In this document: in pieces, positions 17,604 to 56,708 of the stretch | How the letters are laid out: the number at the start of each line of letters is the position of its first letter | Numbering within the stretch: position 1 is the first letter of the stretch | Source of the DNA: a virus | Length of the DNA stretch: 64,000 nt | IMG/VR virus record: IMGVR_UViG_3300045988_054550 | Span: 1 to 64,000 of that record | Strand: one strand, 5' to 3' | Program-made: the position numbers and the translations under genes | Notes under the pieces: model-generated | Told to the model about the DNA's origin: nothing | The model's input: only the letters and a program-made list of their open reading frames with translations | The model's database searches: none

Positions 17604-17604
17604 A

Positions 17605-38700: not shown

Positions 38701-40525
38701 ATTTCTTAGCAGATTTCGAAGCCTTATCAAGTCCACTGGAAATATCGTCACCAGAATCTTTTAATCCACTTAAATCCATGGAAGCATCGTCTAATCCAGC
38801 AAATTCATTCACGACCCCTTTGGCTGAACCTTTTATTTTCTTTCCACTTAAAACATACATGAAGTCACGGAATGACTCCGCCGCTTTTGTAAGTTTTGCA
38901 ATAAAGGCATTAAGGGCTTGGATAGCTGGAAGAATTGCTGATATCAAGCCTTGACCGATGACAGAGGAAAGAGATTGAAAATTTAATGTTAACAATCTCG
39001 TCTGATTAGCCCAGCTTCCAGAAGTTCTAGCGAAATCTCCTTGTTGATCTCCTGTAACTGACAAGAGGTAATTATATCTAAGCATGACCTTTTGTGCTTG
39101 TGTCATGGAATTGTATGAAGTTGTGATTCCTTGGGACAGGGCATACGCTTCCATGTTGGCTACTGAAAGGTTTATACCCAACTGTCTTAAAGGCATAACC
39201 TGACCTGAGATGCCGGCACGAATTTTGTAGAATGCAGTATCAATGTCAATGTTGTAAAAAGAAGCTAAATCGCCGGCTAATCCTGCAAGTGTTGTTGACA
39301 TTTCCGCGGCAGAATCTTGCGCTACGCCAGAAGATTTCAACATTGCCATCATAGTTCCTGTGTAATTCTTTGCAGCTAATTCAGATAATCCAAATTGCTT
39401 TGTGGCTACTGATGCAAATTCATAAGCTTTGTTAGCCATGCTTCCGAAAGCTACATCAACAATATTCTCAACTTCTGTGATGTCGGAACCGAGTTCCATA
39501 ATCCCTTTCCCGTTCATAGCCTGATTAAATTTGCTCATAGCCAAAGAAGCTGTTTTTAAGCCTAGAACAGTTTTTATAAATGAACCGACATTTGAAGTTG
39601 CTGACTCTAATCCATTACTACTACTTATAAGGTTTGAAAATCCTGAAATCAAGAAATTTATCCCGCTTTTGGCTTTATTCACACCATTACTAAGCAATGA
39701 AGAAATTCCTCTAATAATAGAAGAAAGCTTGCTAAATGAATTTGAAACTGTGTTTGTTGCAGTAGAAATTCTTCCGCCTGACGATGCCAGACGTGAAAGA
39801 GCTTCTGTCATTCTTATTATATTTTCACTTACTTCAGGAGCGTCTTTCATGGTTTCAAAGAAATCTTTTAATTCTTTGGCAAGAGTTCCGAGATTTCCAG
39901 CAGTCTGTCCGGCTTTATTTCCCGCATTTGCAAGTTGTGCTATTGATTGTGTGAACCTGTTAACGGATTCAGAAATTTCGCTTGCACTCGAAAGTGTTCT
40001 TGCTGCCTTTTTTAATTGGTGTGCAAGATTGCCTATTCCAGATGTAGTCTGGTCAATTTTTGTACCTGCATTCGCCAATCTTGCCAATGAAGAAACAAAT
40101 CGGTTCACATTGTTTGATACATCTGGAATACTGCTAAGACCAGATAATTCGGAAATCATGTTCTGAATCTTTCCAGACACATCACCTGTGGAGTTTAATG
40201 TTTCGTTCAGTCTGCGGATTGCATTTACGAATGAGTTTAATCCGTTGTTTCTCAAGTTCAGGCTACCGAGCCCACTCATAGACTGAACAAACTGTTGCAA
40301 TTGACTGTTTATCGTTGATAAATCAAGCCTGTCTAATTTAAGTGCTTGAACAGCAGAATTGACCGTGCCTACGGAAGCTGAAAAGTCTCTAAGATACTTG
40401 ATACTCTCAGACATACGGCTACTCAGACGATTCAGTTTATTGCATAAATCATCAATGGATTTACTTGCATTTGATACGTTACTGCTGACCTCTATCGCAA
40501 GGCTATCTATTGTGTTGTCAGGCAT
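35792..40525 (-). CDS. tail tape measure protein (1577 aa)
   Basis: Size, position, repetitive alpha-helical/TM-like segments; AAGGAGG RBS. Confidence 0.9.
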   Translation of the reverse strand: MPDNTIDSLAIEVSSNVSNASKSIDDLCNKLNRLSSRMSESIKYLRDFSASVGTVNSAVQALKLDRLDLSTINSQLQQFVQSMSGLGSLNLRNNGLNSFVNAIRRLNETLNSTGDVSGKIQNMISELSGLSSIPDVSNNVNRFVSSLARLANAGTKIDQTTSGIGNLAHQLKKAARTLSSASEISESVNRFTQSIAQLANAGNKAGQTAGNLGTLAKELKDFFETMKDAPEVSENIIRMTEALSRLASSGGRISTATNTVSNSFSKLSSIIRGISSLLSNGVNKAKSGINFLISGFSNLISSSNGLESATSNVGSFIKTVLGLKTASLAMSKFNQAMNGKGIMELGSDITEVENIVDVAFGSMANKAYEFASVATKQFGLSELAAKNYTGTMMAMLKSSGVAQDSAAEMSTTLAGLAGDLASFYNIDIDTAFYKIRAGISGQVMPLRQLGINLSVANMEAYALSQGITTSYNSMTQAQKVMLRYNYLLSVTGDQQGDFARTSGSWANQTRLLTLNFQSLSSVIGQGLISAILPAIQALNAFIAKLTKAAESFRDFMYVLSGKKIKGSAKGVVNEFAGLDDASMDLSGLKDSGDDISSGLDKASKSAKKLKDSLSLMPFDELNVLTKNLSDDTASLSNKKGKNGASGLDDLGLGDISDQLDSALPDEETPINKWAKKIRKAFLSQDWKGLGKTIADMINIGLQKVYDAINWKKVGPKITEFCEAFTETFNSLADNIDWNLFGRTIGAGFNTIVNTLNLLITGIDWYNLGKKFAEGIGGLIDEVNWNNLGQLLGNKFMLTWEIFRGFVDNLPYSDIGKSVADAMNGMFSTISFSNIADTLSTGLNGAFQALLAWTQSFDWQQLVDNISNGISTFIATFDWTQNGQSLNAFISDLLDALISISGKVDWEEFGRNIGTFLSQIDWGTNLQKLGTVLLDVFGGIWSGLGETSAGKFVEAVIGFGIAAKLLPVVTSIGSVFASTTLASKITSSVANAFSGAIGLFQEGGIVYEAFFSASASLAGALSSLTGLSVPVGVAAAGIAAAVAGVIASIVDLWNTSESFRNTVGIAFEKIKDSIVGAFEKVKTAISPLGEAFVNLGSQLYNFYANSGLKSIVSFFETLAVSVGGTVISTGIAILGDAFSGLISILQSGIDVISDVFKIINGFLTLDFSEIGEGFVNLASDIVGAFENILGSIWDIGKNIILGLFGGVKDAAKDIGGWFKENVVDKIISNVKNLFGIHSPSTVFADIGGYLIEGLKDGVSGAMQGALDVFTNLKENITGILDGITSKIKSLWNKITGKDQDSSGSTSNSKKVSGTTTENYEKVAKDVKEKVHQMRLDTVAELTLMDTNVRTHFTTQHDIMVAKWKQAGEAIVSYINGTMKLNVSKAMNGVVDVVLNSMRRLYTIGWNAIIGLNNGMIAAANQHLYKNAEAIAHNIENRLRSALKIHSPSQVMMELGGFTVEGFQIGMQNMLPKVESTINDISAEVQKINTPSADIITKSTTYQEVKSRMSVDTDDFVDDIRKEVMAISSNTFDNNQMIGQAVKNALNGMAIYADGHLIGYLKEENQQFRNRNGYGIFEG

Positions 40526-42081: not shown

Positions 42082-42294
42082 CTATTCATCTGTGCCTGTT
42101 TTCAGTTCTGGAAGCCCTGCTACAGATGTAAGCAAGGATAAAACGCCGGAAAGAACGGACGCGGATACGACCATCTTCCAGTCAACGCTTCCAAGAACTG
42201 TCGCGGTTCCGATTGTTGCAACAGCTGTCTGAGCAATTGTCTTAACAGCTCTGATTCCCGCAGCTTTCAGCCAATGTAATTTATCTTTACTCAT
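42082..42294 (-). CDS. holin-like membrane protein (70 aa, LL-H-type pattern)
   Basis: ..AGIRAVKTIAQTAVATIG..VDWKMVVSASVLSGVLSLLTSVAGLPE.. Two hydrophobic helices and a charged C-terminus. Confidence 0.55.
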   Translation of the reverse strand: MSKDKLHWLKAAGIRAVKTIAQTAVATIGTATVLGSVDWKMVVSASVLSGVLSLLTSVAGLPELKTGTDE

Positions 42295-42845: not shown

Positions 42846-43364
42846 TTATGAAGAAAATACTTCTTTTGCAATTTTCCTAATGTTCTGCATAATCTTCATG
42901 ATTGCCTTATATACCGGCATGGTAGCTTCGGTACCATAAGAGCGTACCCACTCGCCAGAATCGGCATAATAAACCCACGATTCATTCTTGCCATTCCCTT
43001 GCCCGTATGAACCGATTGTGTAACCAAAATCTTGCCCCTTGGGATGCGGACTGGTTCCTGCCGGAGTGTTGTAGTGAATACCCGACCCAAATTCAATGAA
43101 CAAAAGGTCAGAGCCTTCACACACAAGCGTCGCCTGAGAATAGCCGCCAAAGTTATTGATTCTGATATAGGTGTTATGGTTTTTGTCAGAATCACCTTGT
43201 GCCAATGCTATGTTTTCATCTATGACCGGGATTCCAAGTTCTGCTAGCCTGCGGACAAATTCCTCATTTTTACTCACAAGCGACTTCTGGTACGCTCTGA
43301 GCTGCTTTATTGTGTCCTGTATAGATTTATGCGACAATTCCATTTTAATGCTCTTATTCGCCAT
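42846..43364 (-). CDS. putative neck protein (HK97 gp10-like position)
   Basis: Position only. Confidence 0.4.
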   Translation of the reverse strand: MANKSIKMELSHKSIQDTIKQLRAYQKSLVSKNEEFVRRLAELGIPVIDENIALAQGDSDKNHNTYIRINNFGGYSQATLVCEGSDLLFIEFGSGIHYNTPAGTSPHPKGQDFGYTIGSYGQGNGKNESWVYYADSGEWVRSYGTEATMPVYKAIMKIMQNIRKIAKEVFSS

Positions 43365-43728
43365 CTGAGCCATCTCCTATATACTTGATGCCATATCGTG
43401 CCACATTTCCTTTCTGAGTATCAAGAATCTTTTTTAGACGATAGTCTGGCGGGACTGTAGGCTCTCCAGATTCGTTCAATTCCGGTTTGCAGTCTATCCA
43501 GAATACATCTGCAATCTGTGGTTTAAAGCTACGGTCAAAATTCGTGATGTACCTATCGTAATCAGGGACGTACCCGGCAGATAATTCTTCCGGCGTTCCG
43601 GCTGTTGCTGACACGGATAGGCAATGCAGTTCTGGATTCTGATATTTCTTGATTGTGTCTATTCCGTCAAGTTCTTCTGTCACCCTAGACCAGTATATTG
43701 TTTGTTTTTGACGTTTTAGTCCTCTCAT
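43354..43728 (-). CDS. putative head closure protein
   Basis: Position; AAGGAG RBS. Confidence 0.4.
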   Translation of the reverse strand: MRGLKRQKQTIYWSRVTEELDGIDTIKKYQNPELHCLSVSATAGTPEELSAGYVPDYDRYITNFDRSFKPQIADVFWIDCKPELNESGEPTVPPDYRLKKILDTQKGNVARYGIKYIGDGSDGE

Positions 43729-43935
43729 ATAGTTCTCCTTAAATAACATATTTATGATGATTGTATCTGACCGATTCTTGATTAACCTTTGCGCTGTTCC
43801 TTATAAATAGGTAGAGGTTTTACGAAAGTTTTCCATTTTTTAATGAATTAAATGGGAATAAATGCTTTAGCAATAATTTTGAATTTGTTATAAGTCCCTG
43901 TTTCGACATGTGCAAGAAATACTTTTGATGCCTTA

Positions 43936-45006
43936 CTATTTAATCGGAATAATTACAGTCCCATATAAAAATGGATATGGACAGTATATATCAATATTGC
44001 CATCTACCTTAATTTGAATATTTCCAATATTAGTATTACCGTCTTTAACTAAGGCGCTTCTGTATGCACCAATAGAATCCTTCAATATATATATATCCGG
44101 TAGTTGGGCAATGTTTGTTTGAGCAATTTGCGAATCTTTAGCATTTCCATTGAATTTGCAGTACAATAGTTTGCCAACAGCAAAAGTAGCTAAAACACCA
44201 TATTCACCGCAGGTGATATATCTGATATTATCAATTTTTACTTTACTATTTAATTCATTAATCGCTCCCAGAATTGTTTTGTCGTTCGTCTGAAGCTTTG
44301 CAAACACTTTATCAGCGATTTTATTAAGGACAAAGTCTGACAGCTTGCTCAGCACACCCCTTTTCATTCCTGTACCATCATTAATCAGAAACGCATCAGA
44401 ATCAGCTAATGTACCTCTGTCGGTGTAATTCGCAGATTCCAGATTTTCCGTTTTGGTTTTCAAGGATGTTATGATCTCGGAATCCTCTCTCAAGTATGGT
44501 GCCATATCAATAGCCGGTCCAAGAGTGTCCCATATTTCTCCCGTCCATGCTACATTCATGCCTGCCTCTCCATAAATAGATTTTTCAGATATATTATACA
44601 TCCATCCAATCTTAGGAGATAACGGGAGCTGTGAAATATTTGATACGGAACCTTTGTATAAAAGTGGTGTTGCAATTCCCTCTACGTCTTCTGATACCTG
44701 CTGGATTTTTCCGTTAAGAACACCATATACTTCAATCGGTGTTACTTTGCTTTGTTCGATCTTATCAGGTTTATACCACAATTTCTTACTCTCATCAAAT
44801 TTGTAATACTCTCCTGTATCGGTCATAAAACATGATGAATTGTTAGCAACGTACAGAGGGAGTTTGTCTGAATCTTTCGCAAGTCCTTCATAATGACGTT
44901 TACCACCATCTTTGAAAACTCGGTGAATACTGCCAAGTTGCGGAAGCTGTTCGCCTGGCTTGTATTCTACATCATCAATGATTACTGTATTTTGTGCAAC
45001 TGCCAT
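43936..45006 (-). CDS. fibre-like protein 2 (fused N-domain + shared motif + short C-terminal domain)
   Basis: The N-terminal 80 aa are homologous to ORF 47042-47284. The central motif YGEAGMNVAW.G..WD..G..IDM is shared with 45295-47028. Confidence 0.6.
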   Translation of the reverse strand: MAVAQNTVIIDDVEYKPGEQLPQLGSIHRVFKDGGKRHYEGLAKDSDKLPLYVANNSSCFMTDTGEYYKFDESKKLWYKPDKIEQSKVTPIEVYGVLNGKIQQVSEDVEGIATPLLYKGSVSNISQLPLSPKIGWMYNISEKSIYGEAGMNVAWTGEIWDTLGPAIDMAPYLREDSEIITSLKTKTENLESANYTDRGTLADSDAFLINDGTGMKRGVLSKLSDFVLNKIADKVFAKLQTNDKTILGAINELNSKVKIDNIRYITCGEYGVLATFAVGKLLYCKFNGNAKDSQIAQTNIAQLPDIYILKDSIGAYRSALVKDGNTNIGNIQIKVDGNIDIYCPYPFLYGTVIIPIK

Positions 45007-45127
45007 AATAGTTCTCCTTTCACTTATCAATTCAAAATATAATCTTTTTCTTCCTTTGTAAGAATTGAGAGATTTTCTATCTTTTCTTTTGTAATTTTGC
45101 GAATTGCTTAACTAAAGCACAATTTAG

Positions 45128-45292
45128 TTAATTAGTTTCCACTTTCGGTTCTTCTTCCTTATTAACATCCATCAGCTCATTATACTGTTCCTCAGTAATT
45201 CTGCCCGTTGCGAAGAAAATATCAATCTTATTTTTCAAATCATCTGTCAGACCGTTTTTCTCTTTAAGTTTTAGTAATGTTCTATATAACAT
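45128..45292 (-). CDS. XkdX-like small protein (54 aa)
   Basis: Hand-translated ..FFATGRITEEQYNELM..; typical position after a fibre gene. Confidence 0.45.
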   Translation of the reverse strand: MLYRTLLKLKEKNGLTDDLKNKIDIFFATGRITEEQYNELMDVNKEEEPKVETN

Positions 45293-45294
45293 AA

Positions 45295-47028
45295 TCATAC
45301 CTCCAATTCTGTTAATGCTACTGCGTATTCACTGTTGACGTAGGCTTCTGCCGCCTGCAAATCAGTATCCTGAGTACGTGCATCCATATCATAGATATAA
45401 TTTCTCGTATCGCCTATCTGCTGTTTTACATAGTTCCAACCGTTCTCCATTGAAATCGGATAATTGAATACTGTATATCCGTCAAGCTGTTCGGAATTGA
45501 TAAATATATTTGTGACTGGATAATAGGTTGCAAGTGATTTGAATGCGGCAATTTCTTCGGGTGCGAGGTCGATTTCTGTTGGATTGGCTAATTGGTATAT
45601 AATTCTTGTTCCATACACTTCATTTTTAAACGCACTCAAATCGTCTGTATTAGAATGAAATGCGATTGGTTTGAGATTATCATGCGTTGATAGCCAACAT
45701 CTATAAATATATTTGTTATCTGTCCTATCTACTAAAGCTACGCCTTGATATTTAGTAGTTTGCAGTCTTGCTATATCATCGCTGTTATCACTTATTACAA
45801 ATACATCATCCATTCCATAAACAAAAAATGTATTAGTAGTAATTCTCGTAATTTGATTCATGTCAGAGATAACACATTCTCCAACCATCCTCACCAATTT
45901 CCCTCTCTCCACATCCACATAATCCGCAATATACTGCTGACCATCGATTGTGACGTTACCACCTGAGTTTACAGGGATTGCATTCAATGTGTATGGGAGG
46001 GCGACGGTCTTAAATTGTGTTCCATCTTCATTTGATAATTTTACAGTCGGATTCACCACGCTCTTAATCTCCTGCGGATAGTCAGGATTTGGGCTTGGAA
46101 TACCGCCGGTGTAGGGTTCGTAGGATGTAGCTTCAAGATTTTTAGTTAGCATAATCTCATTCGTTTCATTTGATGTAGTATTTGAATATCTGATAGTAAG
46201 ACATACTTCTGTTTCTTCATCAAGCGTAAATGTCGTATCAGTTTTTCCTTCTGAAATCGTAGCGATAGCTGAATAATCTCTTTTGGATAATCCTATTTTC
46301 AACGCAGAAATATTTTTCAATAGCATTTTATAGGTTCCTGGCGCAAGAGTTATATATCTATTAGTTGAAGTATAGCCACCTGCGCCTGAAATTGTGCCAC
46401 TTACTGAATATCCAAATTTTGTACTGGTTATTCTTGCGCCATTATATGTTTGAGAATAATCTTCATAATCCATATAATAAATATTATCCCCACTATACTG
46501 TTTCTGCTCAGACTTCCCATACAGCATCATATCCATAATTTTGCCGCTATCAGAATCGGCAAGATGGGTTTCGCCTTGTGAACTTGCATAGAATTTGGCG
46601 ATTTTGGTGGATATATCTTCCTTTAGTGAACCAGTTTCCGTTTTCAGTGAAGCAATGTCTGTCTTGTTCTGCTCAATCTGCTGTGCCTGTTCTGTCGTGG
46701 CTCCAGGCTTGACTGGATTCTTTTCAAAATATTCCGTAACTAATCTTTGCATTACCGTCTCTGCTTCTTCTTTTGTGAGATACAGTGACATATCAATTGG
46801 AGCGCCCATAGTGTCCCAAACTACGCCGTTCCATGCCACATTCATTCCTGCTTCGCCGTAGACCGACTTAGACTCGATATTGTACATATCGCCAATGTCT
46901 GGATTTAATGGAAGCAAATCAGCAGTCGCAACTGTACCTCTGTATCTTACAGGGCTATTTAATTTTGCTTCCATATCGGAAATCTGGCGTTTTAATATTG
47001 CATATACTTTCTTTGCTGTTAATGCCAT
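45295..47028 (-). CDS. fibre-like protein 1 (577 aa)
   Basis: Shared motif RYRGTVATADLLPLNPDIGDMYNIESKSVYGEAGMNVAWNGVVWDTMGAPIDMS; AAGGAG RBS. Confidence 0.6.
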   Translation of the reverse strand: MALTAKKVYAILKRQISDMEAKLNSPVRYRGTVATADLLPLNPDIGDMYNIESKSVYGEAGMNVAWNGVVWDTMGAPIDMSLYLTKEEAETVMQRLVTEYFEKNPVKPGATTEQAQQIEQNKTDIASLKTETGSLKEDISTKIAKFYASSQGETHLADSDSGKIMDMMLYGKSEQKQYSGDNIYYMDYEDYSQTYNGARITSTKFGYSVSGTISGAGGYTSTNRYITLAPGTYKMLLKNISALKIGLSKRDYSAIATISEGKTDTTFTLDEETEVCLTIRYSNTTSNETNEIMLTKNLEATSYEPYTGGIPSPNPDYPQEIKSVVNPTVKLSNEDGTQFKTVALPYTLNAIPVNSGGNVTIDGQQYIADYVDVERGKLVRMVGECVISDMNQITRITTNTFFVYGMDDVFVISDNSDDIARLQTTKYQGVALVDRTDNKYIYRCWLSTHDNLKPIAFHSNTDDLSAFKNEVYGTRIIYQLANPTEIDLAPEEIAAFKSLATYYPVTNIFINSEQLDGYTVFNYPISMENGWNYVKQQIGDTRNYIYDMDARTQDTDLQAAEAYVNSEYAVALTELEV

Positions 47029-47041
47029 ATGTGCTTCTCCT

Positions 47042-47284
47042 TTACAGTTTGTACCATGTATCGGTAGGTTTGTGATATTCGTATAATTCAGATGTATCAA
47101 GACACAACGCCGAAGAACCACTCTCTACATAATGTGGGAGCTTTGATACATCTTTTGAAAGCCCCTCGTAATCACGAACCATACCTTTTGCATCTGTACA
47201 TACCCAACTACCTAAATCCGGCAATTCATCACCGGGATTGTACTGAATGCCATCAAAAATAATTGTGTTTTCTGCTTTTGCCAT
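47042..47284 (-). CDS. stand-alone fibre N-domain protein (80 aa)
   Basis: Clear alignment by eye to residues 9-88 of ORF 43936-45030. Confidence 0.6.
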   Translation of the reverse strand: MAKAENTIIFDGIQYNPGDELPDLGSWVCTDAKGMVRDYEGLSKDVSKLPHYVESGSSALCLDTSELYEYHKPTDTWYKL

Positions 47285-47671
47285 CTATGCAATCATCCTT
47301 TCTGCCCCAATGGGAGCTACATATGTGAACTGGTTTCCTAAGATATCTCTGGCCGTGCCAATAACAAACTGTCCATAGTCTGCCAGAATATTACATACAA
47401 ATTCCTCCGCGTCCACCCAATACCGTTTCTTAACCATACGATGAAGTTCTGGTAATAGACCATAACTGAACATCACGCAATGCCCTAACTCATGAATAAA
47501 TACACGGTTCAGAAGTTCTCCATATAGGCTATTTGCGATTGAAATAACGTGGGTGGAATAATCCGATACTCCAAGCGTTCTATTGCCTGTACGGTCAATT
47601 AACACGCTGTCATGCGGAGATACAAACTGCACTCTCCATAGGTCACCGTTCATGTAAAATTGTCTTAGCAT
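47285..47671 (-). CDS. HExxH zinc-metallopeptidase-like protein (128 aa)
   Basis: FIHELGHCV motif. Confidence 0.5.
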   Translation of the reverse strand: MLRQFYMNGDLWRVQFVSPHDSVLIDRTGNRTLGVSDYSTHVISIANSLYGELLNRVFIHELGHCVMFSYGLLPELHRMVKKRYWVDAEEFVCNILADYGQFVIGTARDILGNQFTYVAPIGAERMIA

Positions 47672-47746
47672 GGCTTATCACCATCCTTTTCTCAACTAAA
47701 AAGCCCCTGCTACATTCCTGTAACAAGGGCAAAATTCATATTATAT

Positions 47747-48373
47747 TCAGTTCATCTGCTGTATGAAACGTGTTAAGTCAGTCTTCATCTGCTGTCTGAT
47801 TGATGCGTCTGCATCATCCCACATTTCTTTCATATTGCGGATGATATCTTCTGTATACTCTTTCATGGAATCATCCATTTTTCTCTTAGACTCAGCGTCT
47901 TTGGAATCATGGTAATGTCTGCGATTCTCGCTGTATCTGTCGTAGGTTTCACCATATCTGGACTGCTTATGGTTCATTCCGTCCATTCTCATGCCACTAC
48001 GGTCTGGATGATATCCCATGCGGTACATGTTCTGATCAAACTCTGGATTGATCGGATATTCGCTTATCCAGTCATCATCCTGCATATGAAGATATGGCAT
48101 ATATCCCATTCGGCTTCCTCTGCCTTTTGGTGCAAATCTGCCGTTTGCGTAACGATATCTGTCATATCCCATGCGTCCAAGATACTTCTCTTCCTGCTCG
48201 CATTCGTCCATAGCTTCTACGATTCTGTAATCCTTATCTGCACAAATCGCACACTTTACAGCTTCCATGCAGTCTTTCAAATCGTCCCAGTCTTGAGCGC
48301 TGAGATTGTCAAATCCATGTGCTTTGGCTTTTTCCATAGCCCATTTTCCCATTTCCATTGCAACTTTATGCAT
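47747..48373 (-). CDS. M/Y/R/D-rich low-complexity protein (208 aa)
   Basis: Repeated RMGY and DRY motifs. Confidence 0.5.
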   Translation of the reverse strand: MHKVAMEMGKWAMEKAKAHGFDNLSAQDWDDLKDCMEAVKCAICADKDYRIVEAMDECEQEEKYLGRMGYDRYRYANGRFAPKGRGSRMGYMPYLHMQDDDWISEYPINPEFDQNMYRMGYHPDRSGMRMDGMNHKQSRYGETYDRYSENRRHYHDSKDAESKRKMDDSMKEYTEDIIRNMKEMWDDADASIRQQMKTDLTRFIQQMN

Positions 48374-48798
48374 TACATTGCCCCCTTTCTGGCAGCCTGT
48401 GTAACAGGTGTGTCTGTCGTTGGGGCTGTGCCATTAATTGCTGTTAAATTGTTACTCGGACTACAAGCCGGATTTCCTAACATCTTGAATACTCCGCCGG
48501 TTACACTTGTAGCTACTCTGGTTGCGTACTTTGTTCTGGTTCTTATTCCGCAAGCCGTAACCTGTGCGCAGCAACGATTCTCTAGCGGATACAAAGTTGT
48601 TCCTGTTCCTATCTGAATCATTACCGGGGCAGTAATTGTAGTGGCTTCCGGTATGCTTTGCGCAACAACAATACAATATTTCTCTCCATTGTTGTAACTG
48701 CCTGCCGGAAGTGTGATTACAAGATTGCCTCCTGTAAACGCAACGGCTTGGCTGATTACAAGATGGTTGCAGAGCTTACAAACACTTTTACAACTCAT
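48373..48798 (-). CDS. Cys-bearing beta-rich protein (141 aa)
   Basis: N-terminal MSCKSVCKLC, internal CC and C..C. Confidence 0.5.
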   Translation of the reverse strand: MSCKSVCKLCNHLVISQAVAFTGGNLVITLPAGSYNNGEKYCIVVAQSIPEATTITAPVMIQIGTGTTLYPLENRCCAQVTACGIRTRTKYATRVATSVTGGVFKMLGNPACSPSNNLTAINGTAPTTDTPVTQAARKGAM

Positions 48799-48877
48799 AT
48801 TTTATACCTCTCAATCAAAATAAGAGGTGAGCCATAACCCACCTCTTAGAATTAGTCAACCTCTAAGGGTGAGTTAC

Positions 48878-49687
48878 TTAGCAGCATCCACTGTTGCATC
48901 CGCATCCGCCGTAATAGGTATTCGGATTCGGAACAACATATGCCGGAATAGCCGCCGGATTAATTGCATTGATTAACTGCTGAGTCTGTGAAGCCATAGC
49001 AGTTGTAAGCAATGCGGACTGACGATCCTGAGATGCAGCACGTTTCAGATCAGTATTTTCTGCCTGTAATGTTGCAATCTTATCCTGAGTCAGGAAGTCA
49101 AGGATTGCTCTTGTGTTGCTGTTCTGGTTTTCCAGAAGATCTCTGGTGTTGTTGTTCATTGTGTTCTGGAGAGCACAAGTGTTGGTAGCAAGGTTGTAGT
49201 TAATACCCTGTATAGCTTCTCTTGTTTCACAGCAACAGCTTGCTAACTGAGACTGTAAGGCATTGGTATTCTGCATACCTGCTACTGTATCAGCATTGAT
49301 AGCCTGCTGAACGCCATTGAAGCCCTGAAGCATTCCAACGTTCATGCCATTAAAGCCACTCTGCATGGTATTGTTAAGAGAATATGTGCTGTCACAGATA
49401 CCCTGCTGAATACCTCTGATACCATTCTGAATATCATTAAGGGCGAATTCCTCATTAATATCCGCACGTGTGGCCCATCCTTGGAATCCAGCACCATTTG
49501 CACCGTTTCCACCATTGCCGCCAAAGCCGCCGCCCCAGCCGCCAAAACCTCCCCAGCCGAAGATTGCGAAGATCAGGACAAGCCAGATAAGTGAAAAGCC
49601 ATCACCGCCCCACATATCATTTGCGCGACTATTAGAGCCTGTAGCAGCTGCAATGTCGCTAAGGCTGTAATTTGAACCATTCATCAT
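48878..49687 (-). CDS. Gly-rich, single-pass membrane protein with Cys-rich C-terminus (269 aa)
   Basis: LIWLVLIFAIFGWGGFGGWGGGFGGNGGNGANG; N/Q-rich repeats; C-terminal YYGGCGCNSGCC. Confidence 0.5.
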   Translation of the reverse strand: MMNGSNYSLSDIAAATGSNSRANDMWGGDGFSLIWLVLIFAIFGWGGFGGWGGGFGGNGGNGANGAGFQGWATRADINEEFALNDIQNGIRGIQQGICDSTYSLNNTMQSGFNGMNVGMLQGFNGVQQAINADTVAGMQNTNALQSQLASCCCETREAIQGINYNLATNTCALQNTMNNNTRDLLENQNSNTRAILDFLTQDKIATLQAENTDLKRAASQDRQSALLTTAMASQTQQLINAINPAAIPAYVVPNPNTYYGGCGCNSGCC

Positions 49688-49783
49688 GTTTTTAGTCTCC
49701 TTAAATTTTATTTACAATAGGAGACATCCGCGGCTGTCGTCCCGAATTGTAGCGATTTTTAATCACCCAATTGTGGGGAAGTG

Positions 49784-50029
49784 TTATAATCCAAGGAATT
49801 TCTGGATAATTCCATCTGGTGATAAGTGCTTTTCATTAAATACATTTTGCTGTATTTGATGTAACTGGTCTGTATCACCTTTTTTGTATAAATCCAACGC
49901 ATTCTTCAATGTTGGATTATTTCCTGCAAATTTACTCATATCGTTCATCATGTTGTCAACACTTCCGAACCTCTGAGAAATCATTCTTTCAAGTTGCTTT
50001 TTCATCATGGCGTTTGGGTTGAAATTCAT
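49784..50029 (-). CDS. hypothetical protein (81 aa)
   Basis: ORF track. Confidence 0.45.
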   Translation of the reverse strand: MNFNPNAMMKKQLERMISQRFGSVDNMMNDMSKFAGNNPTLKNALDLYKKGDTDQLHQIQQNVFNEKHLSPDGIIQKFLGL

Positions 50030-50523
50030 CTCTGCCTACCTCCATTCTGCTTAGGTTCCGATGTCCCCGACATCTGCGTCGGAAACATATTCTTTATTTC
50101 AGAAATCTCCGAACAAACATCATTCCGAAGTTGATTAAACATTGCTTCAATGTCAATCTGCTTTTCATCTTGCTTAGATTGCTGTTCGTCTGGATTTACG
50201 AGTCGGTAAACAAAAATCCTGCTTCTTCCATCGGATTGAAGCTGTTTTCTGTAAATTTCAGTTCCGTCTGTTTTTGGATAGTAAACAGGATTACCGGACA
50301 TATCCACATCTTTAGCCTTTACAGTATCAATCCCATCCACCATCTGTCCTTGAAGCATAGGTGATTGTGGAACCGGCTGTAACTGTTGCATCTGTATTTG
50401 ACCATAAGGCATTGCCTGCTGATAATTATTTTGCAGTTGAGCCAGCCTGTCCTGATACGGCTGTATCTGTCCGTATGGATTGTTTATTATTGGTTGTTGC
50501 GGATAATACGGATAACCTGCCAT
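50026..50523 (-). CDS. Q/P/Y-rich protein (165 aa)
   Basis: Start trimmed to the ATG after GGAGGA; MAGYPYYPQQPIINNPYGQIQPYQ.. Confidence 0.5.
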   Translation of the reverse strand: MAGYPYYPQQPIINNPYGQIQPYQDRLAQLQNNYQQAMPYGQIQMQQLQPVPQSPMLQGQMVDGIDTVKAKDVDMSGNPVYYPKTDGTEIYRKQLQSDGRSRIFVYRLVNPDEQQSKQDEKQIDIEAMFNQLRNDVCSEISEIKNMFPTQMSGTSEPKQNGGRQR

Positions 50524-50678
50524 AATCTGTTCCTCCTGTCCGGGATTCAAGAATCATATCCATATCATCTATAGAACGATGCTTTTCCCATATACCCTCG
50601 TAAGGGTTTCTTAACATAATCATTGTGTTTTCTCCTATGATTATATTATATAGGAAGGAACTCTGTTTTTGAACGTCA

Positions 50679-50933
50679 CTATTTCGCCACGTTTTCGCCA
50701 CAATACAAAGAAAAGCCCCGACAGTACATCGGGGCAACTTTAGAAATTTTCTTCTTTATTCTTTTATTAATTCGGTCTATGGTTCTTGGACTATACCCCA
50801 TAAGTTCAGATGCTTCCCATAGTGTCTTTTCGCCATAGACCCGTAATCGAAACAGTTTTTCTTCTCTGGAATCGAAGCCTGCTTCTTTTAAATAAAATTT
50901 TCTTTCATCTTCTGAAAAGTCTGTATAATTCAT
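50679..50933 (-). CDS. small sigma-70 region-4-like HTH protein (84 aa)
   Basis: ..EKTLWEASELMGYSPRTIDRINKRIKKKI..; GGGAGGA RBS. Confidence 0.55.
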   Translation of the reverse strand: MNYTDFSEDERKFYLKEAGFDSREEKLFRLRVYGEKTLWEASELMGYSPRTIDRINKRIKKKISKVAPMYCRGFSLYCGENVAK

Positions 50934-50962
50934 ATTTCCACCGTCCTCCCTTACAAGTGGAA

Positions 50963-51274
50963 TCAAACTGGAAGAATACCGCTTAACATAAAACCGATAA
51001 CTGCGCTGACAATAGATGTAATAACACATACAATGATTGTATCGTAACGCTTTCCCGGGACTGCCATGAGAGTCTTTATATTGTTATTCATCTCATCCAC
51101 AGTTGACTTGATATGATTCAAGTCGTTTTCACTTAATGCCGTTTTTCTTTCCAGTTCCCCGATACGCTCATAAAACTCCTTATGTCGGTCGGATTGTCTT
51201 TCTTGCATCTTTCGAAGATTATCTTCTAATTCTGCTATGCGGTGTTCATTAAAACATTCGTGTTCACATCCCAT
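50963..51274 (-). CDS. XhlA-like protein (coiled coil + C-terminal TM, 103 aa)
   Basis: The architecture and length match the recalled XhlA family. Confidence 0.5.
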   Translation of the reverse strand: MGCEHECFNEHRIAELEDNLRKMQERQSDRHKEFYERIGELERKTALSENDLNHIKSTVDEMNNNIKTLMAVPGKRYDTIIVCVITSIVSAVIGFMLSGILPV

Positions 51275-51387: not shown

Positions 51388-51714
51388 TTAAATTAAACTT
51401 CCTACAAATGGAAAAACGCCATGACTAATATATATTTCCGTTTCGGATTTCCATTTTCGACTTACTGAATTTTCAGAATGCGATTCTTGGAACTCGGCTC
51501 CCTGTTTCACAAGGAAATAGAGAGCCAGATCAAATATACAATCATAACAGTATTCCATATCGGTATTGATTTTTTCCTCTGTATATCCAGACGGATAGTT
51601 GCGCTTCTTTTTAAATGAACGAATTGCACGCTTCACAGACAAAGAAATCATACCGTCAGTTTCCGCATCATCGGATAGATACTCTTTCAGATCATTTACA
51701 AGCCGTTCGTCCAT
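51388..51714 (-). CDS. gp6-like head-tail connector protein
   Basis: N-terminal ..LKEYLSDD..DGMISLSVKRA.. pattern; sits after the capsid gene. Confidence 0.55.
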   Translation of the reverse strand: MDERLVNDLKEYLSDDAETDGMISLSVKRAIRSFKKKRNYPSGYTEEKINTDMEYCYDCIFDLALYFLVKQGAEFQESHSENSVSRKWKSETEIYISHGVFPFVGSLI

Positions 51715-51909: not shown

Positions 51910-52947
51910 TTATTCCCCCGCTTTGGTGCCGATTACGATACCACCATTAGCTTTTGGTACAACAGGAACGAACATACCGGATGCTTTTGTCCATACTGCC
52001 ACAGGGTCTGGAGTGGCCCACATAGACAGTGTTACGAAAGAACGGTTCTCTTCTTGTATAAACTGTCTGTATTCAAGTTCCTCTCGTGTTACGCCCCAGA
52101 GTCCAGTACCAAATGAACCGTTTGGCTCTGCTTCATACAGCGTGAATACATCTTCTTTGAAGTATCTTCCTGTTTTGAGAGAACCATCCGCTTTTCTGAA
52201 TCTGAATTTTTCGTCACAACGATCAATTGTGATTCCGTATTCCTGCATAAGCAGATTTGCAAGCTCCTGTTTTGTTAAGAGACGTTTGTTCGCTGCTCCC
52301 AGAACTGCTGTCTGCATTGCAGTGTTGTTTCTCATGTAGTTAATCATTTTAAGTGATGTCAGGGCTTTGTTTACCACAAATCCATTATCTTCTGCAATAG
52401 CGACCATCTTCTGGATATCACCCATGATATCTGCATCTGGTTTAGACCAGTCTGTCATTTCTACTTTTGCATCGGACGGAACGCCATAATCAATGCTCAT
52501 ATCCACATTGTTTTCTTTAATTTTTACAACACCTGTGCTAAGAAATTGGCCTTTCATGACATTTGCTCTAGCAACAACTCCTTCAAACAGATTAGCTGCA
52601 TCATCAAATACAAATTTCTTTAAATTCTCATCATCCGGCACACCATTTTCAATTGCCTGCTGTAATCTCTCAGACTGATTGATTTTTCTCTTAATAAAGA
52701 GCTTTTCAGTCAGGACTTTTTCGAAGCCCGGTCTTGTTCCGATTTCTGCTTCAGTATCAAGTGCATGAACGAATGCTACCTCTGGAAGTCTCTGTCCAGC
52801 CATAAGTCTGTAGTATTCAGCTTTCAGAAACTGTGTTTTGACATCCGGGAAGATGGTGTCAAGAATGCCCGGCCTTTTTACGCTGAAATCCTGAGAAAAG
52901 TTAAGTCTTTCTTCCGGTGTGATTGATTCTAAAATATTAAATGGCAT
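51910..52947 (-). CDS. major capsid protein (capsid protein E-like)
   Basis: Size, position after the scaffold gene, recalled N-terminal pattern. Confidence 0.75.
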   Translation of the reverse strand: MPFNILESITPEERLNFSQDFSVKRPGILDTIFPDVKTQFLKAEYYRLMAGQRLPEVAFVHALDTEAEIGTRPGFEKVLTEKLFIKRKINQSERLQQAIENGVPDDENLKKFVFDDAANLFEGVVARANVMKGQFLSTGVVKIKENNVDMSIDYGVPSDAKVEMTDWSKPDADIMGDIQKMVAIAEDNGFVVNKALTSLKMINYMRNNTAMQTAVLGAANKRLLTKQELANLLMQEYGITIDRCDEKFRFRKADGSLKTGRYFKEDVFTLYEAEPNGSFGTGLWGVTREELEYRQFIQEENRSFVTLSMWATPDPVAVWTKASGMFVPVVPKANGGIVIGTKAGE

Positions 52948-52960
52948 CTGCTGTACCTCC

Positions 52961-53305
52961 TTAAAATTCTGGGTCTGTAGTAGTCACAAAAACGATACCT
53001 GCTTTTTCAAGCTCTGTTTTTGCAGTGGTTTCTACTGTTACCGGAAGTCTTTTTTCAAGAACACGTCCTGCAACAATAACGGAAATCGGTCTCTTAGCAT
53101 CGTCCGTCATATCAACATCTTCAAACACGATACCTTTAGCACCAGTTGCATTTGTCGGATATACGGAACCTGCTTTGATAATCTTCTTAGTTCCAACGGT
53201 TTCAGCATTTGTCTGCTCTGCTGTATAGGTTTTAAGTACAAGCCCTACCTCGGATTCAAGGATGTTAGGTGTGGATTCGTACTGCTCTGTTTTCATAAAA
53301 GCCAT
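52961..53305 (-). CDS. putative head decoration/structural protein (114 aa)
   Basis: Lies between the scaffold and capsid genes. Confidence 0.45.
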   Translation of the reverse strand: MAFMKTEQYESTPNILESEVGLVLKTYTAEQTNAETVGTKKIIKAGSVYPTNATGAKGIVFEDVDMTDDAKRPISVIVAGRVLEKRLPVTVETTAKTELEKAGIVFVTTTDPEF

Positions 53306-54073: not shown

Positions 54074-54727
54074 TTAACTATATTGAATTGAGCACCGGCA
54101 ATTCACAATCTCGTCTGCCGAAGCTCCTAATGAGGTATCTTTGGGAAATTGTAGCAAGCTATCTCCAACCGAAAACGGCTCATCAATCGGGAGCGTGGTT
54201 CCTCCGACTTCAAGATGTGTCTTTCGTTCTCTTTTGTCTCCTACGTCAACCCATTTCTTCTTTGTCTTTCCTGCTTTTACAGCATTTGAATACTGTCTGT
54301 AATTCAGTATCGAATTAGCTTCGCATTCTGAAATAAACATTGCCCGGTCGTTTGACAGGTAATAATCATCAGTAATGCTTTTATCTTCGGAAGAAAATCT
54401 TTCAAATGTTGCATCAATAATTTGTTGTGTCACGCCAAGAGCATATTACTTGATATATGTGTCTATAAGCGTATACGAAGCAATTACATCCAGATATTTG
54501 TCATAAAATTGAGTCTGGATATATTCTCGGTTTGTTTCTCCGCTTTCTATGGTTGTTTCTATCAGCGCCAAAATATAAAGGACAACTTCTTCCATTTTTT
54601 CGGAAAAAGCTATCCTTTCTTGTTTTTCTTTGTCTGATATCGACATTTTGCTGAAATATTCTTTATATGGTTCGCTTCTGCGGTTACTGGGTCTGATATT
54701 TAATTCATCGTATGATGAAACATTCAT
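54074..54727 (-). CDS. gp7/MuF-like head morphogenesis protein, split by an in-frame TAA (54446-54448)
   Basis: The C-terminal part has the MuF pattern ..W....D.R.R..H......G....PF..G.....P......NCRC. ORFs 54446-54727 and 54074-54433 are in the same frame. Confidence 0.6.
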
Positions 54728-56178
54728 TCTGAAATCACGTCCTTGTTAAAGCCATTCAGCAAATTTTTCGCTTTTTGAAGTTCTGAGTCTGGGTCTGCTA
54801 ATTCCGGGTAAATGGTTCCAAGATATGGTAAACTCATTTCATATACTTTTTGCGGATCACTAAATAATCCGCAAGTAATCAGTGCAATAAGCGGATGAAT
54901 TTTATTCTTAAACAGATAATCAAGTGCCTGTGCTTTGACAAGCATGTTATCTGTCGGGTTTCTAGTGATTTTTACATCAAAATCCCTGGTCGAAATATTT
55001 ACATCCATTGAAGTTTTTCGGATGATATTCAAAATAATTCTGACAGATGCTTTTTCAGCTTCTTTCGTAAATGCTTCTACCAATTTTGCGTCTCGTTCTG
55101 CAAAATCCCAACCATTCCTCAGATATACTGCATTACCAGTATCACCGCCTGTATTGCTTTGCCGGTTTGGCATTGCTTCTACAATCAGCATATTGTTGTA
55201 AATATCATCTTTTGCAACCTGACTCTCTGACTGATTTAGTTCGGCGGTCATTAAATCAACGTCTGATTGTGTTCCGTTTCCAACGTCTTTTACCGATACC
55301 GCACCGAGTTTAACCATCTTTACAAACTCTGCTTCATCAATTTCACAGTTCTTAAATTTCATCAGGGCTTGCACAAACTGCTCAACACCATTCAACCGAT
55401 CAGATTGGTATTTGTTAATGGCATCATATGCCGTAATTGAAATTTCAATATCGGAAAGCCTATCAGGATTATTCGGATATTCATTAATAGGAATCCCGTC
55501 AAATCCGTTTATTCCAAATTCTTTAAGTTGTCCATTTTGCACAATAAAATATTGTCTACTGGAAAACAGTAAATAATATTGCTCATTATCTTCATCTTTC
55601 AGAATCTGAACCGACGCAATAGGTCTTCCGGTTCGACTAGAATAGATAATATATACGTCCCCCGGATACGGAATAAAAATCTGAAATGGTGGTAAATCAC
55701 TACCTTCTGTCCAGTCGTCATTCTTAAGAATACACTTATATGCAGTCCCTACCGCACTCTGGTATATTCCAAGCTGAATATTTCTGGCATCCGCATTTGC
55801 TTCGTCCAGGTAATCATTCAATAAGTCAACCTGAGCATTAGTTTCTTTGCTTGCTTTCTTTTTCTTACAAACATATTGGATTGGTTCTCCATATATCTGT
55901 CCTGCCTTGAATTTTACCGTTTCAAGTGCATGGTTCTCGACGACTTTGTTATTAACTTCGGGCCGAACAAGTTTCTCGCGATATAAAATCGGCTGATCTC
56001 CCTTGTAATATCTGTAAAGATAATCAATCATAGCCCTGTTTCGATTGTGAATTCCAATTGTATTTGAAAGAACCTGCAATACATTATCGGGTGTAATCTG
56101 GTCTACGCCGGTATAAGCAACTTTTCTTCCGAATTCGCCATGGCATAGATCAATAAAGTTTATTTTGTTTCTCCCCAC
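54724..56178 (-). CDS. portal protein (SPP1 gp6-like)
   Basis: ..YLYRYYKGDQPILYREK.. pattern. GTG start after AGGAGG. Confidence 0.8.
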   Translation of the reverse strand: MGRNKINFIDLCHGEFGRKVAYTGVDQITPDNVLQVLSNTIGIHNRNRAMIDYLYRYYKGDQPILYREKLVRPEVNNKVVENHALETVKFKAGQIYGEPIQYVCKKKKASKETNAQVDLLNDYLDEANADARNIQLGIYQSAVGTAYKCILKNDDWTEGSDLPPFQIFIPYPGDVYIIYSSRTGRPIASVQILKDEDNEQYYLLFSSRQYFIVQNGQLKEFGINGFDGIPINEYPNNPDRLSDIEISITAYDAINKYQSDRLNGVEQFVQALMKFKNCEIDEAEFVKMVKLGAVSVKDVGNGTQSDVDLMTAELNQSESQVAKDDIYNNMLIVEAMPNRQSNTGGDTGNAVYLRNGWDFAERDAKLVEAFTKEAEKASVRIILNIIRKTSMDVNISTRDFDVKITRNPTDNMLVKAQALDYLFKNKIHPLIALITCGLFSDPQKVYEMSLPYLGTIYPELADPDSELQKAKNLLNGFNKDVISE

Positions 56179-56288
56179 TGCCTGTCCTCCTATTTTTCTG
56201 CATGAAAAAAGCACCGGAATAAAATCCAGTGCTTAATTTTACATTTTATATTATACACTACTTTAGTGTATGTTTTTGTATGGGATTT

Positions 56289-56708
56289 TTAAGATTCAAA
56301 TTTTTTTAATTGGCGAATTACTGAAATTGCGTCTATATGGAGCTGTCTTACCCACTGATAGGCATAACCCAATTCATCAGAAATTGCATAAAGCGTTTTC
56401 CCTTCGACATATTTTTTGAATAAAATATCATACAAAACCGGATTTTCAACGGAATCAATTGTTCTAATAACTTCCGTTCTTTTCTTTAAATATTCATCTG
56501 TGATATTTCGAATTTCTTTTTGCAAATCAACAATCTCTGCAACTAAATCTCCTGTCTTGTCTTTGTTTCCGGACGTTTGCACACGCTCGCCGTATGAGAA
56601 AGAACTTAATCCAGTTGCATGTGCTTTTAGTTGTTCAATTTCTATGTATTTATTGTGAATTACTCTATCATAACGTTGAATCTGGTTCAAATATTCTCTC
56701 GTGTTCAT
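56289..56708 (-). CDS. DUF1492-like sigma-r4/HTH protein (139 aa)
   Basis: N-terminal coiled coil, C-terminal ..YVEGKTLYAISDELGYAYQWVRQLHIDAI..; ATGA overlap with TerL. Confidence 0.55.
   Translation of the reverse strand: MNTREYLNQIQRYDRVIHNKYIEIEQLKAHATGLSSFSYGERVQTSGNKDKTGDLVAEIVDLQKEIRNITDEYLKKRTEVIRTIDSVENPVLYDILFKKYVEGKTLYAISDELGYAYQWVRQLHIDAISVIRQLKKFES

Follow-up and report, generated by a model that had tools for sequence, protein, structure and literature searches.

What a run of extra genes is doing between the head genes and the neck and tail genes of a phage late operon is the question raised by IMG/VR record IMGVR_UViG_3300045988_054550, of which we analyzed positions 1 to 64,000 (64,000 nt, hereafter the window, whose numbering is used throughout). 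The record belongs to an abundant temperate siphophage of about 76 kb, from a lineage whose hosts are Lachnospiraceae. Twelve minus-strand open reading frames (ORFs) lie here between a gp6-like connector gene and a gene in the head-closure position (block, 43936-51274). An earlier note, made from the letters alone, had read the block as a transplanted module, or a self-contained accessory system with its own embedded regulator, interrupting the head-to-tail joining genes. We hold with moderate confidence that it is a dispensable cargo island at a recombination-prone seam between the head genes and the neck and tail genes, made up of three independently evolving units. The accessory and modular character seen earlier, together with recurrence elsewhere and loss in siblings, is retained in this reading; a single module is not, nor is a recent insertion.

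The three units have different distributions and are not one system. Unit A encodes an XhlA-like membrane protein and a helix-turn-helix (HTH) protein, unit B is the cassette PQ165-h81-G269-C141-Y208, usually with a small peptidase, and unit C is a fiber locus. We observed directly what the block contains, how much it varies, that the cassette is mobile, how selection acts on the genes and how the repeats are arranged. The block is bounded as follows.

51388-51714, minus strand: gp6-like head-tail connector of 108 aa; bounds the island upstream
43354-43728, minus strand: 124-aa gene in the head-closure position (label from position only); downstream boundary
43729-43935: non-coding gap of 207 bp, with the right inverted-repeat arm and a promoter-like stretch before the neck and tail genes

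The connector gene lies 195 bp after the Phage_cap_E capsid gene and encodes 108 aa, in keeping with a family whose members directly follow the capsid gene and have about 100 to 115 aa. The window protein has no family match itself; its homolog in Dulem virus 39 (L098, 6565-6912; 39% identity, E = 4e-13; L numbers denote compared loci) passes Pfam Phage_connect_1 (PF05135) with 22.1 bits against a cutoff of 21.2, as does the protein in the connector position of phage MT835477 (L097; 23.6 against 21.2). The earlier name of connector is therefore kept by transitivity via the 39%-identical homolog, a direct family match being absent. The 124-aa protein gave no match in the family scans, and its label comes from position alone. 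Eleven genes had been counted before, with a80 merged into the fiber cassette, and the non-coding gap had been put at 186 bp (43750-43935); its actual length is 207 bp, the downstream gene starting at an ATG at 43728 with an AAGGAG site.

Variability of the island among relatives

In IMG/VR, 424 loci encode a relative of the capsid protein; the best 80 of these, on contigs of up to about 75 to 80 kb, are 93 to 99% identical to the window capsid. The whole stretch from connector to head-closure gene is covered in 46 sibling loci. Across these 46, the distance from connector to head-closure gene varies from 1538 to 12057 bp, with at least 17 architectures. In blastn comparisons, the siblings are collinear at about 96% from the terminase to 46784, 82 codons into fiber 1, and homology is back at 43729. 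The HTH gene of L032 is joined in frame to a recombinase gene, with nearly everything after the HTH gone; L037 has kept only PQ165 of the cassette and lost nearly everything after it; L045 and L053 lack inner cassette genes; and L086 to L088 have no fiber genes, the zincin stop codon of L086 abutting the head-closure start. Siblings without cassette or fibers keep intact head and tail genes. In L004, a 3.05-kb variable stretch is replaced by 7.4 kb with another fiber C terminus, a 587-aa target of a diversity-generating retroelement (DGR), a reverse transcriptase (RT), small genes and a 331-aa tyrosine recombinase.

The seam was also compared in relatives beyond the siblings. MT835477 has a terminase 78% identical to that of the window and an unrelated portal and capsid, yet it carries this island at the identical seam, in the order connector, XhlA-like, HTH, PQ, h, G, C, Y, zincin, DGR, a80, short fiber, head closure. 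Dulem virus 39, a more distant relative (terminase 43%, connector 39% and tube 55% identical), encodes nothing here but a transmembrane protein and a Hol44-type holin. In the synteny comparison that the earlier note had proposed, the block is thus variable among the 46 siblings and absent from Dulem virus 39; like morons, it occurs in some relatives and is lacking in others between identical flanks. The insertion is not recent in the lineage, the layout being common to about 80 siblings and MT835477.

All block genes are under purifying selection, with ratios of nonsynonymous to synonymous substitution rates (dN/dS) of 0.05 to 0.11 in up to 76 siblings, compared with 0.047 for the capsid gene and 0.07 to 0.08 for the neck genes. 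This indicates that the compositionally odd ORFs are real genes; the extreme composition remarked on earlier was borne out for PQ165, G269, C141 and Y208. From the strong purifying selection on the minus-strand frames, we infer that a plus-strand ORF at 47909-48616 is a shadow of C141 and Y208. Neither an Rfam scan nor a tRNA scan found anything in the block. When the block proteins were compared with Pfam, NCBIfam, PHROGs and PADLOC, the cassette gave only PHROGs of unknown function, and PADLOC-DB 2.0 yielded no defense system for any block protein, only coiled-coil noise at E >= 0.002.

The cassette and the genes before it

Units A and B, with their candidate signals, are laid out as follows.

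50963-51274, minus strand: XhlA-like protein, 103 aa; N-terminal coiled coil, C-terminal transmembrane helix
50679-50933, minus strand: HTH protein, 84 aa; sigma-70 region-4-like domain only
50715-50735, minus strand: terminator-like hairpin with T-run (9 bp, 6 GC) over the 3' end of the HTH gene
50645-50673, minus strand: promoter-like TTCAAA-17-TATAAT in the 155-bp gap before PQ165; 10 of 12 consensus matches only
50026-50523, minus strand: PQ165, first cassette gene; Q/P/Y-rich N-terminal half, small conserved C-terminal domain
49784-50029, minus strand: h81, second cassette gene; small, probably helical
48878-49687, minus strand: G269, third cassette gene and marker of the cassette
48821-48848, minus strand: terminator-like hairpin, 12 bp, with T-run, after G269
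48373-48798, minus strand: C141, fourth cassette gene; Cys-rich, probably beta-rich, with Cx3Cx2C at the N terminus and a conserved NRCCAQVTAC
47747-48373, minus strand: Y208, fifth cassette gene; helical ends, Y/R/G/D/M-rich core with RMGY repeats
47703-47730, minus strand: terminator-like hairpin (12 bp, 6 GC) with TTTTT after Y208, first listed in a 12-kb scan
47285-47671, minus strand: small zincin, 128 aa, HELGH; phrog_1233, 2.3e-10

By tblastn and profile searches, the order PQ-h-G-x-Y, often followed by the zincin, recurs as a unit in otherwise unrelated Lachnospiraceae phages. It lies between the MuF-like gene and the scaffold in Dulem virus 35 (L001) and L105/L106, after the holin and lysin in Bajarodcaudo virus 5 (L002) and Butyrivibrio phage Ceridwen (L003), and beside an integrase or attachment (att) site in L103 and the Lachnospira intestinalis prophage L091. 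On this evidence, we take the cassette to be mobile and moron-like, with products that probably assemble at the membrane.

The membrane link comes from G269, which has one transmembrane helix. Its other features are a conserved motif at the N terminus, a stretch rich in G, W and F, long helices bearing a CCC motif and a tail at the C terminus that is rich in Cys; it contains GWGGFGGWGGGFGGNGGNG and 9 Cys. It matches phrog_16490 (9e-66) and has at least 7974 homologous clusters, none named. Its AlphaFold2 model is poor (pLDDT 44.7), yet residues 30-42, 84-122 and 155-242 are helical in it, in agreement with the transmembrane helix and the long helices. Homologs of h81 (dN/dS 0.056) adjoin those of G269 in distant loci, and about 12 siblings have both genes replaced jointly by alleles only 30% (h81) and 43% (G269) identical between flanks that are about 95% identical. 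In L034, the sole one of these siblings examined for it, a free-standing HNH-type homing endonuclease of 186 aa, as read from its sequence, lies on the opposite strand (13182-13742, minus) between the h and G genes. Residues 7 to 18 of G269 form a conserved Y/L-S-L-x-D-I-A-A-x-T-G-[N/S/G] that matches the double-glycine leader consensus at -12, -11, -8, -7, -4 and -2, and papain/C39-like small genes (phrog_3754) or a Peptidase_C39_2 protein stand alongside the cassette in L001, L003, L105 and L002; the usual N at -1 and the absence of a C39-like gene from the window count against such a leader.

The other four cassette products have no signal peptide. Glutamine makes up 24% of residues 1 to 70 of PQ165 (phrog_21718, 1.8e-20; dN/dS 0.072), which has homologs in L090 to L097; the PQ protein of L105 belongs to the same phrog and has homologs in L001 and L003. 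C141 has 8 Cys and 5251 homologous clusters, none named. Its AlphaFold2 model (pLDDT 46.5) is too poor to use, with beta strands consistent, and a Foldseek search with it was empty. In most other cassettes, the fourth slot holds instead a 140-aa family, phrog_20016, which may be TNF/BclA-like; hhalign showed no relation between this family and C141, and its profile retrieved nothing from the PDB. Y208 (dN/dS 0.067) has 534 clusters at 50% identity, its L105 homolog belongs to phrog_28802, and its profile found nothing in the PDB or Pfam. In the sources, the G269, C141 and Y208 families are named hypothetical, save for a few stray IMG names. The zincin, whose HELGH confirms the HExxH protein of the earlier note, scores below the cutoffs for SprT-like (13.4 bits) and DUF6782 (13.9 bits); it accompanies the cassette in L089 to L094 and L097, and the UniRef name of the L091 homolog is ImmA/IrrE family.

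In unit A, the XhlA-like protein matches the "hemolysin" family phrog_937 (1.1e-12), with coiled-coil-type matches at residues 9 to 70 and a hydrophobic peak at residues 79 to 97. The gene (dN/dS 0.095) is present in each sibling locus that reaches its position. The XhlA-like label survives on the phrog and on the coiled-coil and transmembrane layout, and not on Pfam XhlA (PF10779), which gave nothing at E <= 0.1. Likewise, the sigma-r4-like label of the HTH protein reflects similarity below threshold: Sigma70_r4 at 18.3 bits against a gathering score of 24.1, TIGR02937 at 30.8 against 42.9 (2e-7) and phrog_36 at 6e-6. The gene in the HTH position of L002 passes Sigma70_r4 (26.7 against 24.1). 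Both genes occur in all 46 spanning sibling loci, suggesting that a tail-anchored XhlA-like membrane protein and a DNA-binding protein with sigma region 4 only are fixed in the lineage, where they may belong to its scattered lysis and late-control genes.

A transmembrane coiled-coil gene and a sigma-r4-like HTH gene precede the cassette in the window, L097, L001/L105 and L002; upstream of the integrase-adjacent cassettes, no XhlA or HTH homolog was detected. Given this distribution, and the hairpin with T-run that separates the HTH gene from the cassette, the HTH protein is at most a candidate regulator of the cassette. A hairpin with T-run also stands just upstream of the PQ gene in L001, L002, L091, L103 and L105, as read by eye from their sequences.

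From 29 to 58.5 kb, every gene of the window is on the minus strand, forming a siphophage late operon. Its other landmarks, with the integrase, are as follows.

56705-58447, minus strand: large terminase
54724-56214, minus strand: portal; a MuF-like gene and then the scaffold come next in transcription order
52961-53305, minus strand: decoration-like gene
51910-52947, minus strand: Phage_cap_E capsid gene
Downstream of the 124-aa gene, minus strand: gp10-like gene, then a gene with a weak tail-terminator match (phrog_78, E 0.002)
42082-42294, minus strand: r1t-type holin (PF16945, 2.2e-13), between the tail-terminator-like and tail tube genes
After the holin, minus strand: tube, chaperones, tape measure (35792-40525), then DUF6711
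After DUF6711, minus strand: 1230-aa tail-tip protein, whose sibling homolog bears LRR_5 and Big_3
29072-30502, minus strand: CHAP lysin
3310-4539: tyrosine integrase

The lysis genes are scattered within this operon, the r1t-type holin being separated from the CHAP lysin by 12 kb and from the XhlA-like gene by 9 kb; Dulem viruses 35 and 39, L105 and L097 likewise have genes of holin type amid their neck genes. A DUF1492 protein, sigma-region-4-like, is encoded at 56289-56726 (minus strand), immediately upstream of the gene for the large terminase, where RinA/ArpU-type late activators are usually encoded, so the phage has a second sigma-r4-like protein besides the HTH protein of the block.

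As to what the cassette does, we propose that it is a moron-like transcription unit moving between unrelated phages, whose five products would form a membrane-associated intracellular complex, anchored by G269, late in infection and possibly also in lysogens. Our best guess is that this complex would modulate the envelope, lysis or egress, or act in exclusion, rather than contribute to the virion structure. A rival reading, to which we give a rather low probability, makes the cassette and the XhlA-like protein an accessory lysis or egress system that times or completes envelope disruption with the r1t-type holin and CHAP lysin. It would account for the transmembrane coiled-coil protein directly before the HTH gene and cassette in the window and three other contexts (L097, L001/L105 and L002), for the cassettes that follow the holin and lysin in L002 and L003 and for the retention of holin genes right after the connector in relatives; XhlA of Bacillus subtilis PBSX is reportedly a membrane protein required together with the holin XhlB for lysis, a finding attributed to Krogh et al. 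1998. The cassette proteins, however, have no similarity to holin, spanin or lysin families, the integrase-adjacent cassettes lack a detected upstream XhlA-like homolog, and five conserved low-complexity proteins far exceed the needs of any known lysis accessory.

In an alternative that we regard as unlikely, the cassette is a moron for lysogenic conversion: its products, made from the prophage, would change the host, for instance through exclusion of superinfecting phages at the membrane or through changes to the host surface or spores. The cassette looks autonomous (upstream hairpin, promoter-like site, downstream terminator-like hairpins) and includes a membrane protein, an integrase or att site adjoins it in L091 and L103, and the hosts are Lachnospiraceae, with the L091 prophage abutting a SigF/G-type sporulation sigma fragment. 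Against this, in four of the five contexts the cassette is co-oriented with, and embedded among, late genes, and nothing in PADLOC and no coat or exosporium family matched. The Cys-, Tyr-, Gly- and Gln-rich composition presumably recalls that of spore-coat proteins, but a coat or exosporium role has composition and host in its favor and no family support, and we retain it only as a lesser alternative.

The fragment in L091 (NZ_JBBMFS010000001.1, 8386-8874, minus strand) is a 162-aa C-terminal piece of a SigF/SigG-type factor at the cassette end of the prophage of about 57 kb, next to a ylmC-like gene. This fragment is also found on phage-sized contigs, and the phage seems either to integrate into a sporulation sigma gene or to bring along the 3' end of one. 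Between the portal and MuF-like genes of Dulem-35-like phages, near the cassette, there is a gene for a large protein (L001, 3503-4996; L105, 3631-5922; L106, 3848-5659); it has faint polysaccharide-deacetylase- or pectate-lyase-like Pfam matches, and the L001 version is 34% identical to part of fiber 1.

The fiber locus and its exchangeable tips

Unit C is a host-adhesion locus of an ordinary kind in an unusual place. Its features are the following.

47042-47284, minus strand: a80, 80 aa, homologous to the fiber 2 N terminus; proposed anchor or adaptor as a separate gene
45295-47028, minus strand: fiber 1, 577 aa; conserved N terminus (about 80-180 aa), mosaic variable C terminus
45128-45298, minus strand: XkdX-like small protein, 54-56 aa; phrog_2310, 1.2e-11; ...GRITEEQYNEL... 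motif
43936-45006, minus strand: fiber 2, 356 aa; a80-like domain, domain like the fiber 1 N terminus, shaft ending ...AINELN, 103-aa tip
44248-44261: inverted repeat, left arm, 14 bp, TTAATGAATTAAAT; encodes INELN at the shaft-tip junction
43840-43853: inverted repeat, right arm, 14 bp, in the non-coding gap; exact inverted copy of TTAATGAATTAAAT
44243-44254, minus strand: direct repeat copy 1, 12 bp, ATTAAATAGTAA, at the shaft-tip junction
43933-43944, minus strand: direct repeat copy 2, 12 bp, ATTAAATAGTAA, covering the tip stop codon

The a80 protein resembles the N terminus of fiber 2, and the next domain of fiber 2 resembles the N terminus of fiber 1. A single anchor is therefore common to both fibers; in the first fiber cassette, it is divided between two genes. 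The a80 protein is 77% identical in L097, and its dN/dS of 0.049 is among the lowest in the block and like that of the capsid gene. Fiber 1 loses homology to siblings at 46784, 46615 or 46490, and sibling versions of 616 to 793 aa carry DUF6273 or Lipase_GDSL_2. The XkdX-like gene is present in only some siblings; phrog_2310 bears out the earlier label, whereas the Pfam XkdX model does not reach E 0.1. Fiber 2 belongs to a family confined to this phage group (286 clusters), in which the first ~255 aa (the N-terminal 72%) are 95 to 98% identical and the remaining tip is hypervariable, some tips bearing H_lectin or DUF6273. Among 111 INELN-containing cluster representatives, 58 unrelated families of fiber tails can be told apart. 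Since the phage has a separate LRR/Big_3 protein at the tail tip, the block fibers are additional. A phmmer search of the PDB with the concatenated neck and fiber proteins found nothing.

The point of exchange is defined by repeats. TTAATGAATTAAAT has 2 copies in the 64 kb, with 0.01 expected, and the homology with siblings ends at 44243, next to its left arm; in siblings, tips of at least 10 kinds stand between the two arms, which are 287 to 871 bp apart. ATTAAATAGTAA has exactly 2 copies in the window, with 0.05 expected. AAATAGTAA also occurs at the tip stop codon in L020, L022 and L108, the last an unrelated phage whose fiber gene precedes the lysin. One relative, L107, has an empty site, TTAATGAATTAAA-TAGTAA-TTTAATTCATTAA, a 13-6-13 palindrome in which the 14-bp arms are only 4 nt apart and which folds as DNA at -10.6 kcal/mol (z = -6.3); a tyrosine recombinase gene (L107, 1144-2130) begins 195 bp downstream. 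About 30 of the 46 siblings, as well as L107, encode this recombinase, and in many siblings the 331-aa gene takes the place of the 43729-43935 gap, of which positions 43792-43729 are common to siblings without it. All siblings that have the gene have before it a conserved leader of ~130 nt that seems to form two stem-loops (GGAGCTGGACT...AGTCCAACTCC and GGGTAC...GTACCC; L107, 950-1143; L004, 19120-19317).

Many siblings, among them L004 (15029-18361), and also MT835477 (L097, 16667-19700) have a complete DGR inside the island that targets the C terminus of a 508- to 587-aa protein. The L004 element was verified, with a variable repeat (VR) at 16690-16791, a template repeat (TR) at 16889-16990 and an RT at 17186-18361, the repeats being 102 nt long and 85% identical; the window has no RT, TR or VR.

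We propose that the conserved anchor, a80 plus the fiber N terminus, fixes the fibers to the virion, probably at the neck given their likeness to lactococcal collar fibers, and that interchangeable C-terminal glycan-binding tips set what they bind. Tips would be exchanged at the INELN palindrome with its AAATAGTAA repeat, and siblings have, in addition, a DGR and a tyrosine recombinase at the fiber locus, the latter being the putative tip-swapping enzyme. The neighboring recombinase could insert unrelated tips in frame at this lox/dif-like palindrome in an integron-like manner, building fusion proteins, and such capture, if true, would explain how a shaft 95 to 98% identical comes to bear 58 or more unrelated tips. 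The joint proposal that fiber 2 is a plug-in tip-capture system and that PQ-h-G-(C or T)-Y is a new membrane-anchored, low-complexity, Cys-rich assembly in infected Clostridia is a speculative one, with the odds clearly against both parts holding.

In a broader alternative, which we think quite improbable, the whole block is ordinary virion machinery: the fibers would be collar fibers, and the odd proteins, the zincin and the XhlA-like protein would serve in assembly, decoration or ejection. The block would then, with the same small probability, belong with the head-to-tail joining genes instead of interrupting them. Its fixed position in about 80 siblings and in MT835477 with its swapped head module, purifying selection as strong as that on the neck genes, and the Dulem-35-like cassette lying again inside the head module near a fiber- or depolymerase-like gene are all in its favor, as are the optional neck fibers of lactococcal phages, with a conserved N terminus and variable carbohydrate-binding tips (PMC6669499). 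It does not explain cassettes beside integrases and after lysis genes in other phages, the transmembrane anchor of G269, the internal terminator-like hairpins or the siblings that have lost cassette or fibers and keep head and tail genes intact.

Equally improbable, in our view, is that the fiber 2 tip is an invertible on/off segment, the remnant of an inverton flipped by the sibling tyrosine recombinase and locked on in the window after recombinase loss. Perfect 14-bp inverted repeats bracket the tip, the recombinase gene is immediately downstream in many siblings, and the bifidophage Rin system, a tyrosine invertase adjoining C-terminal segments of the receptor-binding protein (RBP), provides a precedent (PMC6109161). 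However, no contig in inverted orientation was found among 15 loci, IMG/VR or the JGI metagenomes; the tip segments have no minus-strand matches; a flip would give only a 4- to 53-aa tail and no second tip; and inversion cannot explain the 58 unrelated tips or the direct repeats.

The cargo island remains the reading that we prefer, and several observations weigh against it. The deletion variants come from metagenome assemblies and could be defective prophages rather than viable phages, the HTH::recombinase fusion of L032 being a case in point. That the island has been kept by most siblings, and by a relative whose head module differs, is also consistent with a structural role linked to the neck. 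Promoter-like sites are no commoner in the region than in shuffled sequences (36 versus 33). The window lacks a recombinase beside the tip site, and the failure to find an inverted tip, noted above, applies to this reading too. Finally, the cassette proteins matched nothing in Pfam, NCBIfam or PADLOC, nor in the PDB where searched, and both AlphaFold2 models are poor, which makes the role proposed for unit B a guess.

Comparison with known systems

The island is real and partly new, and only its fiber half is explicable. The lineage is very common in human-gut metagenomes, with 424 related loci in IMG/VR alone, and the members of the G269 and C141 families number in the thousands, none of them annotated; a conserved, mobile, strongly selected five-gene cassette is a well-defined target for study in the poorly studied phages of Lachnospiraceae and, if its products do assemble, would represent a new kind of phage-encoded cellular structure.

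Morons were reportedly described in lambdoid and HK97-like phages by Juhala et al. 2000 and Hendrix et al. 2000. Like them, the cassette is extra DNA between conserved late genes, present or absent in relatives, bracketed by terminator- and promoter-like sequences and recurring in unrelated phages; unlike them, it is a low-complexity unit of five to eight genes rather than one or two. It matches the moron concept only in its form.

The PBSX-type late region of Bacillus subtilis has the order xkdV-xkdW-xkdX-xepA-xhlA-xhlB-xlyA, and the block likewise groups fiber genes, an XkdX-like small protein and an XhlA-like membrane protein. It differs in that the order is reversed, the holin (42082-42294) and lysin (29072-30502) are elsewhere, the group lies between head and neck genes and the Pfam XhlA and XkdX models are not reached at E 0.1. 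Bajarodcaudo virus 5, with the order RBP, XkdX-like, holin, lysin, transmembrane coiled-coil, HTH and cassette at the end of its late operon, agrees with the expectation in the earlier note that such genes normally close the tail and lysis region.

In lactococcal 936 and P335 phages, the neck passage structure (NPS) is optional, with a conserved N terminus and carbohydrate-binding tips, and falls into seven groups (PMC6669499). The block fibers share the optional occurrence, the conserved N terminus and tips with lectin, esterase or DUF6273 domains, but no sequence relationship was found, and they have an anchor split into an 80-aa gene, number two and have at least 58 tip families against seven NPS groups.

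In bifidophages, the tyrosine invertase Rin lies beside C-terminal segments of the RBP (PMC6109161). As in Rin, Min, Gin and Cin systems, fiber 2 has a constant N terminus, a repeat-bounded variable C-terminal segment and, in siblings, an adjacent recombinase of the tyrosine type, as in Rin. In contrast to them, there is a single segment with no alternative tip on the other strand and no inverted state seen, the window is without a recombinase, and the tips vary between genomes and not within one. The fiber locus meets the full definition of neither the lactococcal NPS nor the Rin shufflon. As in gut-phage DGRs, siblings have an RT, a TR and a VR (102 nt, 85% identical) at the 3' end of the 587-aa target gene in the island, whereas the diversity of the window comes from the swapping of whole tips.

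Capture of cassettes by integrons and the lox- and dif-type sites of tyrosine recombinases offer the remaining comparison for the tip site. In its empty form, seen in L107, it shares with these 13-bp perfect inverted arms around a 6-bp center, an adjacent tyrosine recombinase and many unrelated cassettes at one point, and, as in integrons, some tip cassettes bear the junction motif at both ends. It departs from integrons in having one cassette per genome, no arrays and in-frame fusion to a constant protein; the center is not repeated at the right junction (yTTCCC plus arm), where conservative recombination predicts that it would be, and the role of the recombinase is putative. One backbone can thus bear dozens of receptor-binding tips that are unrelated to one another and all join it at the same nucleotide-precise point, which bears on the evolution of host range in the gut and offers a natural template for engineering the host range of phages; if the neighboring recombinase swaps the tips, this would be a new use of site-specific recombination.

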